Of a stretch of DNA of 8,865 bases, positions 1-8,173 are shown piece by piece. A model generated the notes under the pieces. That model saw only the letters and a list, made by a program, of their open reading frames with translations. It did no database searches and was not told where the DNA came from. Location of the stretch: the IMG/VR virus record IMGVR_UViG_2740892214_000003. The stretch is one strand, 5' to 3'. The DNA comes from a virus (lineage: Duplodnaviria > Heunggongvirae > Uroviricota > Caudoviricetes). The position numbers and the translations under genes were made by a program. The first letter of the stretch is position 1; each line of letters begins with the position of its first letter.

Positions 1-161
1 ATATGACAAGATGTGTATCTACCTTAACTTAATGATTTTGATAAAAATCATTAGGGGATTCATCAGTGCTCTACATTTTTATCCATAATAACCTCCCAAT
101 GAACAGGTATCATCAGGAGGTTATTATAAAATATGATTATTTACTTTGATTGAATTTATTA

Positions 162-533
162 CTATATGTAACAATCAATTTCTAAAGATACCCCCAACAT
201 TGCCAGACAACCGTCAATAAACCCTTCAGCTTTCTGCAGTCTGATAACAACCTGATTAAGTGATATCCCCAGTTTTACCCCCAACGCCCGTAATGTAACC
301 CCATACACATAATACATTTCCAGTAATTCGTATTGATACGGTTCCTTTTTCTTAAGAACTGTCATCGCAGAGCTAATGATCAGGCCATCGTCATCGCTAC
401 ATTGCGGGCGGGATTTTACTTTCGAAGGAATTAATCCCTTAAAACCTGCAGCAACAGATGACCATTCCACATCCTCGTGATTATTTGCCACCCATGCCCC
501 CCAACGTTCAAGAACCATTTGAATATCACGCAT
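162..533 (-). CDS. Phage antitermination protein Q (QuuD-like late-gene antiterminator)
   Basis: ORF-track protein from the internal ATG at 533 (MRDIQMVLERWGAWVANNHEDVEWSSVAAGFKGLI...KSRPQC...) matches my memory of Q proteins of E. coli lambdoid prophages. The track start at 548 is a TTG; the ATG at 531-533 has a GGAG 9 nt upstream on the minus strand. Stop TAG at 162-164. It is the last gene of the early-right train, as expected for Q. Confidence 0.8.
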   Translation of the reverse strand: MRDIQMVLERWGAWVANNHEDVEWSSVAAGFKGLIPSKVKSRPQCSDDDGLIISSAMTVLKKKEPYQYELLEMYYVYGVTLRALGVKLGISLNQVVIRLQKAEGFIDGCLAMLGVSLEIDCYI

Positions 534-3110: not shown

Positions 3111-3760
3111 GCCGCCATCTCCCTGACAAGTTTTTCTGCCTGCTGGCGAACCTGCGCCAGAAACGCCTCACCACATGCCTCAAGTTCATCGCGCCCGATG
3201 TAGCTGATTGCCGGTCCCTTCCAGGTCTTGTCGAAAACAGCAATAGCACCAGCGAAGAAAGCGCCTGTCGGCACCTGCTTCTCGTCCTTCGGGATAAACC
3301 AGGCTGGCAGTTCAAAACCAATACGCCCGCGAATAAAAGCAATATGGTCTGCATCTTCCGGCCACCACACTTCGCTGGTGGCAGCTTTGATCAGGAAAAC
3401 ATAGCGCCCGCCTTTATCACGCATAGCACTGGCATGTTTCATGATGTAACGCATGCCGGTGATGTATTGCCCCTCATGCTGACTGGCGCGGCTGTACGGG
3501 GGATTACCAAAGGCAGCACCTTTAAGCTCCGCAAGACGTTCTGACCAGTCATGCGCCAGCGCGTTGTCTTCCGCAGTGTAATAAGCGGCACATTTGGCGT
3601 TATCACCATCAGTGAACAGATCCAGAACAAACGGGCCAAACAGGGTGTTAATTCCCCAGAAAATGTTGTCCGGCGTGCGCCACTGATCGCCCACTTCCTT
3701 CAGTTCATGGGCTGGTTTGTTCCGCAGTTCCACCAGCGCCTGGCAATATTTATTACTCAT
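3107..3760 (-). CDS. Phage DNA N6-adenine methyltransferase (Dam-like, orphan)
   Basis: Motifs WRTP, FGNPPYS (the NPPY catalytic motif) and the FIRGRIGF region are typical of the phage Dam family. The ATG at 3758-3760 overlaps the upstream stop (TAATG); the track start at 3793 is a GTG and would overlap the upstream gene by 33 nt, so it is less likely. Confidence 0.85.
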   Translation of the reverse strand: MSNKYCQALVELRNKPAHELKEVGDQWRTPDNIFWGINTLFGPFVLDLFTDGDNAKCAAYYTAEDNALAHDWSERLAELKGAAFGNPPYSRASQHEGQYITGMRYIMKHASAMRDKGGRYVFLIKAATSEVWWPEDADHIAFIRGRIGFELPAWFIPKDEKQVPTGAFFAGAIAVFDKTWKGPAISYIGRDELEACGEAFLAQVRQQAEKLVREMAA

Positions 3761-4248
3761 TAAGCCCCCACGTAATTCCCTGATAGATACCACTCTTCAC
3801 CTGATGCAGCGCGCTTGCTGCTTTTCCGTAAGCACCGCTCACGACGCGCCAGAAAATTGTTTCGTTCTGGCTGGGAGTGGCTTTCACGGAATGCCGCCAT
3901 CCACACGGTTGCAGCACGACGGTATAAGCCCCTTGACTCCAGTTCTTCAGCCTGGCGGGTCAGGCACAAAATCACCCGGGGATCGTTAGTGCCGACATAG
4001 AAATTGCGCACAGGTCTGGTTTCACGAACTGGTTGTGGTTCCGGCTCCTGCGCTCTCTCAGTCAGGCGTGGGAAATGTCTGCGTGTATCTCCTTCACAAC
4101 GGTGAGCCACACGCCCACTCTGACGTAACTTGCTTGCAGACTGCAGAACGCGCTGCCGTGAGTAACCTGCAAAAGCATCCGCAATGTCTCCGGAAGTACA
4201 CCCCGGATGGGCTTCAATGAATTTCTGAACTTCATTCAAAAGACTCAT
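3760..4248 (-). CDS. Putative regulatory protein with an N-terminal wHTH-like region and a PerC/ANR-like C-terminal motif
   Basis: Open frame coupled to both neighbours. The first ATG is at 4246-4248 (MSLLNEVQKF...); the track start at 4254 is a GTG. The C-terminal segment LTRQAEELESRGLYRRAATVWMAAF resembles, from memory, the conserved helix of PerC/ANR-family activators. The family assignment is tentative. Confidence 0.55.
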   Translation of the reverse strand: MSLLNEVQKFIEAHPGCTSGDIADAFAGYSRQRVLQSASKLRQSGRVAHRCEGDTRRHFPRLTERAQEPEPQPVRETRPVRNFYVGTNDPRVILCLTRQAEELESRGLYRRAATVWMAAFRESHSQPERNNFLARRERCLRKSSKRAASGEEWYLSGNYVGA

Positions 4249-4250
4249 GA

Positions 4251-5243
4251 TCACCCCCTGAATCCTACCGGGATCTGGCTGTAGTCCACGTTGTCGTAAC
4301 TGGCTTTGAAGTACGGGTCTTCACGTTTTTCTGTGTGCGTGCTGACGGACGGCGATAAGCGCAGGGAAAGCTCATCCCATTTTTCCCGCAACTTCGACGG
4401 GCTGAGCACGTTACGGCACCAGAACGGATCACGGCTGACGCGGCTGTACATCTCGCAGATTTGTTTGTGAGTACGACCATCCTGCACACACATCAGGCGA
4501 ATTTCGTTTGCCCATGCTGTCCAGTTCGGTTCTTTGGGACGAACCACCTCGCCGTCACATTCGGCGGCCTGCTCGTACAGGGCGATGATTTTTTTCCAGA
4601 GCCACTGTGCGCAGGTCAAATCATCCTGCGTTCCCCACTGGCGCTTTTTAGGGCTGAATACAACCGCATCAGGATGGCGAGTTAAAAACTCCTGTTCAGC
4701 CGTTTGCGTGTCCGGTTGCGAAGCGTCCGGACGAGAAGAGGTTTTATTCTCTGTAGTAATCTCTGTTGTATTCTCTGTAAGATCATTGGGCCATTTTGAC
4801 CCGATGACAGCGTGTCGTTTTGAACCAATGGATCGTGTCATTTTGCGCCCATCCATCAGGTCACTTTGACCCGATGGAGAAGTGCATTTTGACCTGATGG
4901 ATTCGTTCACTTTGACCTCTTCTAAAAGCTCACTTTCATAGTTGATCGTGTAGAAGTTGGTCATGTCACGCTTCGATTTATTGAGTTGCTCGCGACGCAA
5001 AACCCCAAGTGATTTCAGGCTTGCAAATGTGCGTTTCAGAGTGGACTCTGACCAGAACGGAAACTGCTCCAGCCACTGTTCTGTCGTGTTATAAACCCAG
5101 CGAATTCCGCCATGCTCAGTGCCTGAATTCGTTTCATTCAGCCAGTAATGAAGCTGCTGCAACACAATTGCCTCATTCAGACCAATACGGCATGCAAGAT
5201 CACGATTTATCACAATGGGCTGGGATGTCATTAACAGACTCAT
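4251..5243 (-). CDS. O-like replication initiator (replisome organiser) with the origin iterons inside its coding sequence
   Basis: 330-aa ORF; the N-terminal region (INRDLACRIGLNEAIVLQQLHYWLNE...) resembles phage replication-initiator wHTH domains. Six iterons of about 17 bp lie in the middle of the gene, as in lambda O. ATG at 5241-5243 overlaps the upstream stop (ATGA). Confidence 0.75.
   Translation of the reverse strand: MSLLMTSQPIVINRDLACRIGLNEAIVLQQLHYWLNETNSGTEHGGIRWVYNTTEQWLEQFPFWSESTLKRTFASLKSLGVLRREQLNKSKRDMTNFYTINYESELLEEVKVNESIRSKCTSPSGQSDLMDGRKMTRSIGSKRHAVIGSKWPNDLTENTTEITTENKTSSRPDASQPDTQTAEQEFLTRHPDAVVFSPKKRQWGTQDDLTCAQWLWKKIIALYEQAAECDGEVVRPKEPNWTAWANEIRLMCVQDGRTHKQICEMYSRVSRDPFWCRNVLSPSKLREKWDELSLRLSPSVSTHTEKREDPYFKASYDNVDYSQIPVGFRG
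4746..4782. repeat. Three tandem 11-12 bp repeats (TCTCTGTNGTA) flanking the iterons
   Basis: attctctgtagtaa / tctctgttgta / ttctctgtaaga read directly from the sequence; they encode the TEN/TEI/TEN repeat in the initiator linker. Confidence 0.6.
4793..4922. repeat. Replication-origin iterons: six direct repeats with consensus CAYTTTGACCYGATGGA at 22-24 bp spacing
   Basis: Repeats start at about 4793, 4815, 4839, 4862, 4885 and 4908 (cattttgacccgatga / cgttttgaaccaatgga / cattttgcgcccatcca / cactttgacccgatgga / cattttgacctgatgga / cactttgacctc). The spacing of roughly two helical turns is typical of initiator-binding iterons. Confidence 0.7.
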
Positions 5244-5464
5244 GCCGCACCTCCGAGATGCTTCATGTTTTTTCCGGAGCGAAAGGCTATAAGCGGCATA
5301 CTGACGCGGTAATTACGACCCAGCGGTTCACAAATCACCTTCTGACATTCACGGTCCACCAGGCTAACACGTAGAACATGCCCTGCAGGCGTGGTGTACC
5401 ACTGACCGGGGCGAGGACAACGGAAAGTCTGATTGGTAAATCGTTTGAAAATATTCCGGATCAT
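5240..5464 (-). CDS. Hypothetical small basic protein (74 aa)
   Basis: ATG at 5462-5464 overlaps the Rha-ORF stop and its own stop overlaps the O-like ATG (ATGA both sides), which argues that it is translated. No family recognised. Confidence 0.5.
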   Translation of the reverse strand: MIRNIFKRFTNQTFRCPRPGQWYTTPAGHVLRVSLVDRECQKVICEPLGRNYRVSMPLIAFRSGKNMKHLGGAA

Positions 5465-6624
5465 TTGCGCCCCCTTACCTCTGAAGAGTTCAGCGACGAA
5501 TGAATAAGACGGGCAAGAAATGCCGCATCGTTAATTCGGTCATACAGACTTACAGCCAGAGGTGATTCAGCTTTTTCCAGCATGGGATAAAGCTGCTGCA
5601 ACCAGACCTGATGAATTGATGAAATGTAGGAATAGAGAACACTGGCGTTATGTGCAACGTCGCTCGGTACAGCGGGCTTTGAAAGCTGTTTCTCCATCTG
5701 GTTAAAGGCATTGATGTATGCCTCTTTGCACTGGGCAGCACGTTTACCCGTGAAACCCATAGCAAGAAACGCAAAGCCATCGCGGGTTATTTGATAGCAA
5801 GGTAGTTTGCGAGTACCGCCGTTGGGCTGGCGTACCAAAATTGATGTCTCCGCAAAATTGCGGGCACAAAACTCTGGAGAACAATCCAAAATGCGAATCT
5901 TTTTCAGAACATCGTCATGACGTTTAGAGAAGAAGTCAGCAACAGCCAAAGAAGATGTAACAGCCTGACCATCAACGATGGCAATTTCAGGTTGAGAGAG
6001 GGTTGGGAGAGTAGTCATAGTGACAGCCCCGGTAGTCAGTTTTTTAGAAAACTCACCACATGGGACGCCAATCACAGAGGTGGTGAGACGTACAGGGTTG
6101 GCGTTACCGGAGACTACCGAACCCGGCCCGACCGAAGTCGGCCCTGTACGCCCCACCATAATTTGGGCGTAGCAATGCTCATGACACGAAAAAACCGCAT
6201 GAGCGCGGTTATGCTCAGTAATCAATTTCAGGACGCCAATCCCGGCACCCGCTTTATAAGGTGCCTGAACAGTGTAACGTCCCGGAATGGCAGAATCAAT
6301 GTGCTGGTGGTCCTTCACACTCAACAAAATCACGCCTGAATTTCCACAAAGGACTAAAGCACTCATGCGGGTAGTCTTTGCGAAGATAGATAACGCGCTG
6401 TGTTTCTGGCTCCCAACGAATAACATGGACATAAAGCCCTCTTCCATCACGAAACCAGCGGTTAAGTTCCTGCACAACTCGCCCCCCACAGTCAGGTAAA
6501 GTTCTCTGTGGTTACTTACAGCCAGGTGATTTGGTAATCTGCATTCATGCCGTAACAACAGGTGTTCAGCGACACTGACCACCAGCTGTTGCGACAAACG
6601 GTTATTTGCCGTTAAACTGTTCAT
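5461..6624 (-). CDS. Rha-family phage regulatory protein carrying an unrecognised N-terminal extension of about 200 aa
   Basis: Residues about 215-311 (IAIVDGQAVTSSLAVADFFSKRHDDVLKKIRIL...RKLPCYQITRDGFAFLAMGFTGKRAAQCKEAYINAFNQME) match the pRha domain pattern. The same frame stays open for a further 606 nt upstream, to an ATG at 6622-6624 that overlaps the CII-like stop (ATGA). An alternative internal start is the ATG at 6016-6018 (MTTLPTL...). Confidence 0.6.
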   Translation of the reverse strand: MNSLTANNRLSQQLVVSVAEHLLLRHECRLPNHLAVSNHRELYLTVGGELCRNLTAGFVMEEGFMSMLFVGSQKHSALSIFAKTTRMSALVLCGNSGVILLSVKDHQHIDSAIPGRYTVQAPYKAGAGIGVLKLITEHNRAHAVFSCHEHCYAQIMVGRTGPTSVGPGSVVSGNANPVRLTTSVIGVPCGEFSKKLTTGAVTMTTLPTLSQPEIAIVDGQAVTSSLAVADFFSKRHDDVLKKIRILDCSPEFCARNFAETSILVRQPNGGTRKLPCYQITRDGFAFLAMGFTGKRAAQCKEAYINAFNQMEKQLSKPAVPSDVAHNASVLYSYISSIHQVWLQQLYPMLEKAESPLAVSLYDRINDAAFLARLIHSSLNSSEVRGRK

Positions 6625-7199
6625 GCGTTAGTTTCTCCACAGACACAAAACGCCACGACGCCCGGAGCTGCACACTCGCGGGCGTTACTCTTTTCCGGCG
6701 CACAAAAAACACGAAATAACAGTGTTAAATGCTCCTGCCACTTCGCCATTACTTGGTAGCTGTTCTCTTCGATTTGCTCACGCTCAGCCTGGTCAATAAC
6801 TCCATCAGCAGTTGCCTTGCGTAAGTACTGGGAATGCTTGCCAATCCATTCTATTGACTCCATCAGCCGCTGATTAATGTCACCATTGTCAATGTCATCA
6901 ATGACCACCAGCGGCACAAACACCCCATTACTACGACGGGCTATTGCATCTGTTATATGCCTGGTACCACTGGCATCCTGTAAAACCATGGCCCACTCAA
7001 GTGGAAAAATTTGATCCCCACCGCTACGCAGTCTGTTATGCAATTGATCTTTTGCTGGGGTGATATCATCAGATTTATACAAACCAAGAATTTCTGCTGC
7101 TTCCTCATAGCCATGAGGTAAATCAGCAATCGTTCTTCGTATTGCTGCCACCAGCCATGCTGGTTGTTTATCAACTTTCCATTCAGGTTCTTTACCCAC
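6621..7199 (-). CDS. CII-like regulatory protein (possibly CP76/YdaT family)
   Basis: 192-codon ORF immediately downstream of cro, the position of cII. Apparent GTG start at 7197-7199 with a GAGGA 7 nt upstream on the minus strand. The family assignment rests on position and a loose resemblance recalled from memory. Confidence 0.5.
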   Translation of the reverse strand: MGKEPEWKVDKQPAWLVAAIRRTIADLPHGYEEAAEILGLYKSDDITPAKDQLHNRLRSGGDQIFPLEWAMVLQDASGTRHITDAIARRSNGVFVPLVVIDDIDNGDINQRLMESIEWIGKHSQYLRKATADGVIDQAEREQIEENSYQVMAKWQEHLTLLFRVFCAPEKSNARECAAPGVVAFCVCGETNA

Positions 7200-7226: not shown

Positions 7227-7424
7227 TTATGCCGCAGCACTGTTAGTCTTTTGATATAAAGACACGTCAACTTTCAGTTTTCCGTTAGTAATTTTTTCTA
7301 ACTGGTACGCTCGGCCTTCAGGAATAATCTCAGGCCACTCTGAAACAGACGGATGCTTAATACCTAGGGCTTCGGCGGTTTTACAAACTCCGCCGAAATA
7401 ATTAATCACGTCGGATTTCCGCAT
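7227..7424 (-). CDS. cro: Cro-type repressor (P22 Cro-like)
   Basis: MRKSDVINYFGGVCKTAEALGIKHPSVSEWPEIIPEGRAYQLEKITNGKLK parallels P22 Cro (MYKKDVIDHFGTQRAVAKALGISDAAVSQWKEVIPEKDAYRLEIVTAGALK). ATG at 7422-7424 with GGGAGA upstream; divergent from the repressor gene. Confidence 0.85.
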   Translation of the reverse strand: MRKSDVINYFGGVCKTAEALGIKHPSVSEWPEIIPEGRAYQLEKITNGKLKVDVSLYQKTNSAAA

Positions 7425-7485: not shown

Positions 7486-7496
7486 GAATCCTACAT
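7479..7496. promoter_or_regulatory. Degenerate operator (ATGTCAAGAATCCTACAT) with one good half-site
   Basis: The right half ATCCTACAT is a perfect half-site and the left half is poor. It lies inside the 9-bp inverted repeat TGCCAATGT...ACATTGGCA (7475-7500). Confidence 0.45.
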
Positions 7497-7503
7497 TGGC
7501 ATG

Positions 7504-7521
7504 TGGTAGGATTGCCTACAT
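7504..7521. promoter_or_regulatory. Degenerate operator (TGGTAGGATTGCCTACAT) overlapping the repressor start codon
   Basis: Matches 7 of 9 and 8 of 9 positions of the operator half-sites; sits in the position of an OR3-like site. Confidence 0.45.
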
Positions 7522-8173
7522 GATGAACATGAGTGATCGTATTCGCCAAAGGCGAAAAGAACTGAACCTGACACAACAAGCACTGGCTGATTTGACTGGT
7601 GTGAACCGTGTCACGGTTACTGGATGGGAAAAGGACGACTACCAACCAAATGGAGCCAACCTTCAAGCCCTAGCCAACGCACTTAAATGCGATCCTCTGT
7701 GGCTTGTTAGCGGAAAAGGCTCGCCTGAACCAAAGATAAATCTAAAACCTGAAATATTCGCAGTTAAAAAAGTCCCCCTCATCTCGTGGGTTCAGGCGGG
7801 TTCATGGACAATGACGGAGCCTGGTGTCAGGAAAGAAGATGCTGAAGAGTGGGTTTATACTACCGCCCTTGTATCAGAAATGGCATTTGCACTACGGGTC
7901 CGTGGTGATTCAATGACCAATCCCCTCGGCTCACCATCGATACCAGAAGGTTCTATCGTTATCGTAGAGCCAGATATTATTGATACAGAGTGTATTAACG
8001 GAAAAATCGTTGTTGCCCATATCAATGGTGGGCAAGAAGCGACACTCAAAAAATTTGTTGAGGACTGGCCGAACAGGTATCTCGTCCCACTAAATCCTAA
8101 CTATAAAACTATTGAATGCGGTGAGAACTGCAGAATAGTTGGTCTTGTCAAACAAGTAATAATGGATTTTTGA
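7520..8173 (+). CDS. cI: CI-type phage repressor: N-terminal HTH plus C-terminal S24 (LexA-like) autopeptidase
   Basis: The HTH region (LTQQALADLTGVNRVTVTGWEKD), an Ala-Gly site (VQAGSW), the catalytic Ser in GDSM and Lys in TLKKF are all present. The track start at 7496 is a TTG; the first ATG at 7520 sits under a degenerate operator and has a weak AGGA 8 nt upstream. Confidence 0.85.
   Translation: MMNMSDRIRQRRKELNLTQQALADLTGVNRVTVTGWEKDDYQPNGANLQALANALKCDPLWLVSGKGSPEPKINLKPEIFAVKKVPLISWVQAGSWTMTEPGVRKEDAEEWVYTTALVSEMAFALRVRGDSMTNPLGSPSIPEGSIVIVEPDIIDTECINGKIVVAHINGGQEATLKKFVEDWPNRYLVPLNPNYKTIECGENCRIVGLVKQVIMDF

Follow-up and report, generated by a model that had tools for sequence, protein, structure and literature searches.

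A 387-codon open reading frame (ORF) on the minus strand of a lambdoid prophage (positions 5461-6624) very probably does not encode one protein; it consists of a ymfM-type gene, an RNA cassette of the IsrK/C4 type and a Rha gene of 185 amino acids (aa). The ORF lies in an 8,865-nucleotide stretch of viral DNA (IMG/VR record IMGVR_UViG_2740892214_000003), referred to here as the window. The whole window spans the early genes of an e14/CPS-53/ST64B-like lambdoid prophage of E. coli, namely its early-right operon, which is transcribed on the minus strand. An earlier note, made from the sequence alone, read the ORF as a Rha fusion whose N-terminal 200 aa belong to no family, and saw in it and a coupled 74-codon ORF an undescribed accessory or conflict module inserted between a CII-like and an O-like gene. 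Both ORFs exist as claimed, and the pRha domain is indeed confined to the C-terminal half of the longer one (residues 223-312, E 7.7e-26). The fusion itself gives way to the three-part composition described above, and the N-terminal half can be placed: residues 117-212 match Pfam Phage_ASH (PF10554; E 6.6e-11; window 5989-6276), residues 47-98 match the YmfM family phrog_1170, and a DUF4222 gene sits in another frame (6296-6475).

The RNA cassette fills the part of the frame that carries the Phage_ASH match (the 'Ash' stretch). Its features and the gene that follows are, in order of transcription:

6271..6299, minus strand: predicted sigma-70-type promoter (-35 TTGATT at 6299-6294, 17-nt spacer, -10 TACACT at 6276-6271)
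6188..6264, minus strand: IsrK-type leader RNA, the equivalent of P4 seqA and P1 a1b1 (Rfam RF01394, 59.3 bits, E 5.1e-11)
6239-6233, minus strand: target b1, in the IsrK leader, TTGGCGT
6224-6216, minus strand: target a1, in the IsrK leader, TGATTACTG
6076..6163, minus strand: C4/CI-type antisense RNA (Rfam RF01695, 82.3 bits, E 1.8e-15)
6119-6111, minus strand: C4 element a', the loop of hairpin 2, CGGTAGTCT
6104-6098, minus strand: C4 element b', single-stranded, ACGCCAA
6071-6065, minus strand: target b2, downstream of C4, TTGGCGT
6038-6030, minus strand: target a2, at the Rha ribosome site, TGACTACCG
6030-6027, minus strand: Shine-Dalgarno (SD)-like GGGG of the Rha gene, adjoining a2 and 8 nt before ATG 6018; GGAGG in relatives
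5461..6018, minus strand: Rha-family regulator or antirepressor-like gene, 185 aa from ATG 6018

Rfam recognises the cassette at its gathering thresholds, and this kind of system is already known. The IsrK match is full-length and exceeds the gathering score of 50; the C4 match covers model positions 1-87 of 87 and exceeds its threshold of 45 (clan CL00128). A c4-a1b1 match on the leader is weak (E 0.0028) and below gathering. An independent terminator scan places an intrinsic terminator at the 3' end of IsrK, with a stem-loop at 6210-6193 followed by a T-run. The promoter ends 6 nt before position 1 of the IsrK model and aligns with the experimentally defined Gifsy-1 promoter PisrK (TTGACA-18-TATATT; PMC4825925). 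It matches 8/12 consensus positions and was not reported by a generic promoter scan with a threshold of 9. It is also the most conserved part of the region (pi 0.086), and the invariant 'IDS..GRY' protein motif is simply this promoter in translation. The isrK and C4 matches occur in the same order in every relative with an 'Ash' ORF (the E. coli loci L004 and L005, ST64B, mEp460 and C. braakii). P4 has both RNAs too, as leader and CI RNA, and so does Gifsy-1, directly upstream of anrP; there RF01695 also marks the STnc1160/orf45 region.

Codon-level selection separates the cassette from the gene that follows it. In nine lineages, the synonymous fraction across the 'Ash' stretch (6295-6019) is 0.150 in the Rha frame and 0.135 and 0.130 in the others. 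Across the Rha domain (6018-5740) it is 0.471, with 0.111 and 0.055 in the other frames, and across the Rha C-terminus (5739-5464) it is 0.501, with 0.136 and 0.108. Coding selection starts at ATG 6018 and there is none in any frame across the 'Ash' stretch; this is the decisive result. AlphaFold2 models built on a 45-sequence alignment give the 'Ash' stretch no secondary structure and a predicted local distance difference test score (pLDDT) of ~25, compared with 80-90 for the Rha domain. The earlier note had itself allowed that the N-terminal 200 aa might be untranslated, with the real start at ATG 6018. This is largely what was found: codon selection begins at 6018 and positions 6019-6299 hold a predicted promoter, an IsrK-type leader with its terminator and a C4-type RNA. 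The first ~105 codons are a different matter, as they belong to the ymfM/DUF4222 pair.

Base pairing between the C4 RNA and its targets is maintained by compensatory change. This was seen in an alignment of homologous positions from the window and loci L006, L007, L009, L010, L012, L013 and L054. Elements a' and b' pair with a1 and b1 in 96.8% of cells; shuffles give 65.8%, with 0/500 reaching the observed value, and slid controls give at most 50%. Compensatory changes with these upstream targets occur in 11/16 pairs. Between a' and a2, 91.3% of cells are paired (51.9% in shuffles) and compensatory changes occur in 8/9 pairs. The a' loop takes seven allelic forms in the eight sequences, and both targets are changed to match every time. 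The b element exists in two matched versions, ACGCCAA/TTGGCGT and TTTCCAC/GTGGAAA, and b2 follows b'. To judge from these alignments, antisense specificity has clearly diversified in the cassette, and the loops with their targets resemble a series of RNA specificity (immunity) types. Between E. coli prophages that are otherwise nearly identical, the differences lie chiefly in a few loop and target bases.

The Pfam PF10554 'domain' appears to be a translated RNA cassette, because it overlies the isrK and C4/CI RNAs both here and in P4, in sequence without a coding signature that is predicted to be unstructured. A survey of P4-like satellites used PF10554 as a marker of the P4 antirepressor epsilon (PMC8628076). 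The resulting equation of Ash with epsilon was rejected: in Pfam scans of the P4 ORFs, PF10554 matches the old 'cI ORF' over the CI RNA (L053 8330-8521) while epsilon is PF25738, and a BLASTP comparison of the Ash stretch with epsilon gave no match. A weak likeness to the C-terminal motifs of calcineurin-like phosphoesterases, suggested in the earlier note, is rejected as well. No Metallophos-type Pfam match was obtained at E<=0.1, and the CHEH and VGPGSV strings on which the suggestion relied map to the IsrK terminator/spacer and the C4 RNA, that is, inside RNA genes.

Upstream of the cassette, the long frame is a ymfM gene in which a second gene is nested:

6316..6624, minus strand: ymfM-type frame, codons 1 to ~105 of the 387-codon ORF; its ATG and the ymfL stop overlap as ATGA
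6296..6475, minus strand: DUF4222 gene, 59 aa, in another frame within the 3' half of ymfM; its GTG start is preceded by a G-rich SD

The window frame is the homologue of ymfM from the K-12 prophage e14: it agrees with it in position, through the ATGA overlap with ymfL, and in sequence (phrog_1170, E 2.3e-10), and its N-terminus aligns without gaps to the YmfM motif L[FL]R[YH]E.R...N...NH...VG. It differs from e14 ymfM in the loss of the stop codon, so that in the window lineage the frame continues into the cassette. In K-12 e14 the gene order is ymfL, ymfM (112 codons, with the ATGA overlap) and then directly the O-like gene oweE; K-12 ymfM also holds an unannotated DUF4222 ORF in another frame. 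The N-terminal halves of ymfM in the window (6476-6624) and in the K-12 type (L003 7823-8001) are barely alignable as DNA and have the protein motif in common.

The DUF4222 product matches Pfam DUF4222 (PF13973; E 9.5e-14) and phrog_1343 (E 1.1e-36), and the gene is annotated in relatives by the Prokaryotic Genome Annotation Pipeline (PGAP). Where the two ORFs overlap, differences in the DUF4222 frame are 12 synonymous and 5 non-synonymous against ST64B and 18 and 17 against K-12; counted in the 387-codon frame they are 0 and 16, and 3 and 32, respectively. Among 22 distinct sequences, diversity at the third codon position of DUF4222 is 0.486 compared with 0.23 at the other two, and selection in the overlap tracks the DUF4222 frame (47% synonymous versus 9.5%). 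Codon position 2 of ymfM falls on position 3 of DUF4222, which makes the synonymous/non-synonymous test in the overlap uninformative on ymfM; for the same reason the overlap is silent on whether ymfM is translated there, and stop avoidance alone is informative.

Stop avoidance was assessed in a scan for DUF4222 with one genome per species, which gave 40 loci from many genera of Enterobacterales, 38 of them informative for gene order. In nearly all 40 loci, an ATG at -167 to -194 relative to the DUF4222 start opens a frame that lies one base ahead of DUF4222 and contains no stop up to +157..163, shortly before DUF4222 itself ends; the remaining frame is mostly closed by ~+11. The ymfM ATG forms an ATGA overlap with a ymfL-like stop in ~31/40 loci, and stand-alone ymfM ORFs of ~110 codons, ending ~10 nt before the next gene, are present in ~38/40. 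Given the DUF4222 amino acid sequence and local codon usage, the chance of a stop-free ymfM frame over the overlap is ~0.045 per haplotype. The upstream half of ymfM is under classical purifying selection. Diversity at codon positions 1, 2 and 3 of codons 6-55 is 0.164, 0.125 and 0.288 in the 22 sequences, and 51% of codon differences in the N-terminal half are synonymous versus 14% and 7% in the other frames. SNP (single-nucleotide polymorphism) analysis of the 5' region within types met too little variation to inform, and amino acid polymorphism density along the 387-aa proteins gave a mere hint of weaker N-terminal constraint. We therefore regard ymfM and DUF4222 as two genuine, overlapping genes that together form a core unit in this group of phages. 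It was considered that, with DUF4222 real, the ymfM frame might be an artefact; this was dropped in view of the ~38/40 open loci and the purifying selection on the N-terminal half. A programmed -1 frameshift from ymfM into DUF4222, which the frames would fit, was set aside as well, since DUF4222 carries an SD and a start codon of its own in every haplotype examined. ymfM evolves fast, yet it stays in phase with DUF4222 in all haplotypes.

These gene orders also show where the insert lies. The O-like gene directly follows ymfL and ymfM/DUF4222 in K-12 e14 and in ~36/38 informative loci from other Enterobacterales genera. The material between the CII-like and O-like genes is therefore variably present and accessory, as had been proposed, but its contents are not a 387-aa and a 74-aa gene. 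Nor does it begin at 6624: the DUF4222 stop overlaps the -35 box of the cassette promoter, and the insert runs from there (~6299) to the O-like start.

The origin of the long frame can be read from related loci. In E. coli locus L005, the ymfM stop lies 9 nt before the ATG of an ORF that spans the cassette and Rha. This stop and the following ATG are both gone in the window type, ST64B and C. braakii; consequently, the ymfM frame runs in phase through the cassette into Rha. None of these three has a ymfM stop at +157..163, where ~38/40 other loci have one. In other contexts, 'Ash-Rha' ORFs stand alone and come with N-termini of four kinds, all of which begin ~12 codons ahead of the promoter motif. 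In a search of 1.8 billion representative proteins, the 'Ash' match falls mostly at the very N-terminus of the target, and residues 1-100 match YmfM-type proteins of ~108 aa. Some 'Ash-Rha' ORFs are ~100 aa over the usual length (P0164, P0167, P0168 and P0241, 474-492 aa; P0272, 290 aa), and one of these begins with the N-terminus of the 74-aa protein (MIRNIFKLFTN...). Their sequences hint at tandem or rearranged cassettes.

The 185-aa product of the Rha gene matches Pfam Phage_pRha (PF09669) at E 2.2e-26 and 90.9-92.7 bits (cut-off 29.9), TIGR02681 at 88.3 bits (cut-off 45.95) and PHROG families labelled 'Rha-like transcriptional regulator' and 'anti-repressor'. AlphaFold2 predicts a winged-helix pRha domain followed by two long C-terminal helices. 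BLASTP found no similarity between the Rha cargo and Gifsy-1 AnrP (E 0.88). Since the cargo varies from cassette to cassette, with AnrP (ORF6N) in Gifsy-1, a 76-aa ORF in L004 and both epsilon and alpha in P4, the RNA part is a portable unit of control. In L004 (E. coli C-SRM-3, 3308-4082), the same promoter, IsrK and C4 series is followed by the unrelated 76-aa ORF, which has no Pfam match, and then by a 78-aa variant of the small gene; there is no Rha, and the locus is annotated 'ash family protein'.

The small gene after Rha is real, as had been claimed: compared with ST64B, 26 of its codon differences are synonymous and 12 non-synonymous, and ATGA overlaps couple it to Rha on one side and to the O-like gene on the other. 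It is present after non-Rha cargo in L004 and absent after Ash-Rha in L005, and thus it is not strictly tied to Rha. Its product belongs to phrog_1153 (E 1.3e-45), labelled unknown function; the family comprises 42 protein clusters, all from Enterobacteriaceae and all 'hypothetical'. The 74-aa protein has no Pfam match. AlphaFold2 models it as a small five-strand beta-barrel (mean pLDDT 75), for which BFVD holds no structural match below E 1e-3. A likeness to DUF4222 is suggestive but not established: BLASTP gives E 0.02, DUF4222 cross-matches phrog_1153 at E 0.008 and hhalign gives E 0.02 with a probability of only 2.3%, with one register in all three comparisons.

There are a number of observations that weigh against the three-part reading of the long frame, and several of them also speak for a genuine multidomain protein (YmfM-like, Ash and Rha) translated from the ymfL-coupled ATG. 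The latter model is annotated from the ATGA overlap in ST64B (sb41), mEp460, Stx2a_WGPS2 and most GenBank records. The ORF is open and ATGA-coupled, and ORFs of 383-387 codons with 64-79% aa identity are kept in the window type, ST64B and C. braakii, the three diverged lineages that lack the ymfM stop. No canonical ATG with SD is found at the 'Ash' start in the window lineage. The frame in phase with ATG 6018 is stop-free over ~95 cassette codons in 9/9 lineages, and insertions and deletions within the cassette are multiples of 3. Since the in-phase frame is open and the ymfM stops are missing, translation through the cassette on pR transcripts is possible. The openness of the upstream half of the cassette is, however, weak evidence for coding, because the other frames there are stop-poor as well (0-5 stops), and the stop-free frame can partly be explained by coupling of the orf45 type. 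Further points against the three-part reading are that the SD of Rha is weak in the window (GGGG) and that RNA processing, promoter activity and regulatory outcome are taken by analogy from homologous systems with other cargo (P1 Ant, P4 epsilon/alpha and Gifsy-1 AnrP with its ORF6N domain); the antirepressor role of Rha-family proteins would likewise follow from family annotation. A single multidomain protein is nonetheless improbable. No frame of 6295-6019 is under codon-level selection, and the stretch is filled by a predicted promoter, a terminator and two Rfam RNAs with covarying targets; 'Ash' is predicted to be unstructured; where the ORFs overlap, selection is on the DUF4222 frame; and the ymfM stop is present in most relatives.

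Two other models keep a shorter protein that begins upstream of ATG 6018. The functional Rha protein could be 232 aa long, read from the in-frame orf45-like AUG at 6159, which lies at the 5' end of the C4 RNA; the leader would then be fused in frame and not AUGA-coupled. The sequence AUG GUG GGG CG is conserved, and in Gifsy-1 it is the proven first orf45 start and is needed for anrP translation; a fusion of this kind in S. dysenteriae was pointed out in the Gifsy-1 work (PMC4825925). The frame is also stop-free into the Rha ATG in 7/7 lambdoid lineages examined. This start is possible, and we would still bet against it: there is no synonymous-site excess over 6159-6019, and a conserved SD (GGAGG in relatives) with ATG 6018 directly after a2 fits independent or coupled initiation. 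The RefSeq/PGAP model, which has DUF4222 and, from an internal ATG (6366 or 6426), an 'Ash-Rha' protein of 297-321 aa, is scarcely credible. PGAP annotates near-identical loci in this way, and phrog_821 covers residues 61-387. However, three different starts are chosen for one sequence (6426, 6366 and 6333) and none of them has an SD; the N-termini lie inside the DUF4222 gene, in a frame without selection, and the 'Ash' part is the RNA cassette. A ymfM gene, an RNA cassette and a 185-aa Rha gene thus remain the preferred composition of the 387-codon ORF.

How such a cassette may work is suggested by related systems. In the immI region of P1 and P7, two exposed elements of the C4 RNA are complementary to target pairs on either side of it, a1b1 upstream and a2b2 downstream. 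The first gene under its control has a2b2 at its ribosome site, and an antirepressor-type protein serves as cargo. Differences in the C4 loop between P1 and P7 define specificity. The Rfam families C4 and c4-a1b1 are named for the P1 system. The window C4 likewise has two elements with upstream and downstream targets, the latter at a ribosome site; the architecture is that of P1/P7 c4 with a1b1 and a2b2, of P4 CI with seqA and seqC and of the Gifsy-1 isrK locus. In contrast to P1/P7, the window has no icd, carries Rha-family cargo, has its upstream targets in a terminated IsrK-type leader and lies in a lambdoid pR operon. In P4, the PLE leader (seqA) and the CI RNA (seqB) are matched by the isrK and C4 models in the same order, the Ash match falls over the CI RNA and the cassette is upstream of replication genes, as it is here. 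The downstream genes of P4 are different (epsilon, orf151 and alpha), and P4 CI works by premature transcription termination.

The closest parallel in order is Gifsy-1 (Hershko-Shalev et al. 2016, PMC4825925). There, a promoter drives the 77-nt IsrK and a read-through transcript, and an ~80-nt RNA, STnc1160, is processed from the orf45 region. Translation of orf45 is coupled to that of anrP, and IsrK supplied in trans activates anrP translation. Conservation of orf45 is at the nucleotide and not the amino acid level, and S. dysenteriae has it fused to anrP. Both loci run from a promoter, a predicted one in the window, through a 77-nt IsrK with a Rho-independent terminator and a C4-type RNA with the orf45 AUG (MVGR...) to antirepressor-like cargo. 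They share the Rfam families and an identical b element (ACGCCAA/TTGGCGT), and in both a' is complementary to a1 and a2. They differ in the cargo, which is a pRha protein in the window and AnrP (ORF6N) in Gifsy-1, and in the orf45-like frame, which in the window (and in all of the 7/7 lambdoid lineages) continues into the Rha ATG with no AUGA end. The window cassette is in the early-right operon, ~5.5 kb from the Q-like gene, whereas that of Gifsy-1 is downstream of the Q-like antQ; the window has the 74-aa gene where Gifsy-1 has isrJ.

The insert is a cassette of the c4, CI or isrK type, composed of a predicted promoter, terminated leader, C4-type RNA and cargo. By analogy with P1, P4 and Gifsy-1, the internal promoter would, in the lysogen, make the IsrK-type RNA and some read-through transcript, from which the C4 RNA would be processed. 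C4 would then pair with b2 and with a2 at the Rha ribosome site, resulting in a translation block, premature termination or both; the Rha protein and transcription from the internal promoter would thereby stay off. The leader, with a1 and b1, may compete for C4, remodel the mRNA or activate. Once released, the Rha protein may act as an antirepressor-like regulator. A more far-reaching version, prompted by the position of the cassette in the early-right operon just ahead of the replication genes, is a P4-style second layer of immunity, in which C4 from the internal promoter gates both Rha and transcription into O, the at least seven exchangeable specificities are hetero-immune classes of E. coli prophages that are otherwise nearly identical, and the frame from ymfM, or from an upstream ATG in other contexts, is kept open so that ribosomes on pR transcripts read across the terminator and the C4 fold and override the block in lytic growth; we regard this as speculative, with the odds clearly against it. 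The insert does contain a Rha-family gene to which a small gene is coupled in translation, and a part in conflict over repression or lysogeny is plausible, so the idea of an accessory or conflict module stands in part. The module cannot be called undescribed, as P1 c4-ant, P4 CI RNA and Gifsy-1 isrK-orf45-anrP are of the same kind.

The genes around the insert are those expected of this operon, including the CII-like and O-like flanks named in the earlier note:

7496-8173, plus strand: cI-like repressor
7227-7424, minus strand: Cro-like gene
6621..7199, minus strand: ymfL, CII-like regulator, upstream neighbour of the 387-codon ORF
5240-5464, minus strand: 74-codon ORF
4251..5243, minus strand: O-like replication initiator, downstream neighbour

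The ymfL product matches Pfam Phage_CP76 (E 4.7e-7), NCBIfam phage_reg_YmfL (E 5.3e-54) and phrog_101, 'CII-like transcriptional activator' (E 3.1e-62); the O-like product matches phrog_391, 'replication initiation O-like' (E 3.8e-101). The ATGA overlaps are present at all three joints, between ymfL and the 387-codon ORF, between this and the 74-codon ORF, and between the latter and the O-like gene. Past the O-like gene, the operon continues with PerC/yfdN, a Dam methylase, a LexA-like gene, RusA, KilA-N, DUF968 and a Q-like gene; a run of 208 N (2079-2286) masks the middle part of the KilA-N domain gene (1548-2378). At least three types of O-like N-terminus (330, 272 and 313 aa) occur behind one upstream cassette (window 4251-5243, L004, L005 and L006). 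The last ~25 residues are common to all O-like types, and the recombination junctions are the ATGA gene boundaries. Window positions 6200-6640 are matched over at least 80% of their length in 983/5426 complete E. coli genomes, and related DNA is also found in the isolated phages ST64B, mEp460, cdtI and Stx2a_WGPS2.

Rha and Ash proteins have been described in the Shiga toxin (Stx) phage replication-region types Eru6, Eru7 and Eru9 (Fagerlund et al. 2022, PMC8951638). The Eru6 reference, Stx2a_WGPS2, is 89.5% identical to the window and has the order CII, 383-aa 'antirepressor', small ORF and O. Ash was read in that work as a protein domain of unknown function, for which a role in replication was considered (PMC8951638), in contrast to the RNA cassette proposed here. 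In the searchable literature we found no recognition of the 'Ash domain' as an RNA cassette, no such cassette inside a lambdoid early-right operon with Rha cargo and no set of covarying specificity alleles.

The e14 gene ymfM has been reported as the SOS-inducible cell-division inhibitor SfiC (Ansari et al., bioRxiv 10.1101/2020.11.19.390815). The K-12 experiments cloned the whole ymfM ORF, without frame-specific mutants (bioRxiv 10.1101/2020.11.19.390815). The cloned ORF includes DUF4222 except for its last 6 codons (L003 7823-8181). DUF4222 is better conserved than ymfM, and PGAP annotates it in place of ymfM in non-reference K-12 genomes. Given clones of the whole ORF and no frame-specific mutants, filamentation could stem from either product.

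For annotation, the finding means that a promoter and two regulatory RNA genes have apparently been read as protein, and that this is very common in Enterobacteriaceae. The resulting labels include 'Ash family protein', 'Rha family ... regulator' of 280-390 aa and 'peptidase'. Use of PF10554 as a protein marker carries the error on, to P4 epsilon and to a candidate replication protein of Stx phages. The cassette would also offer a tractable system for RNA-based immunity and cross-talk between lambdoid prophages resident in one host, Eru6-type Stx phages included.

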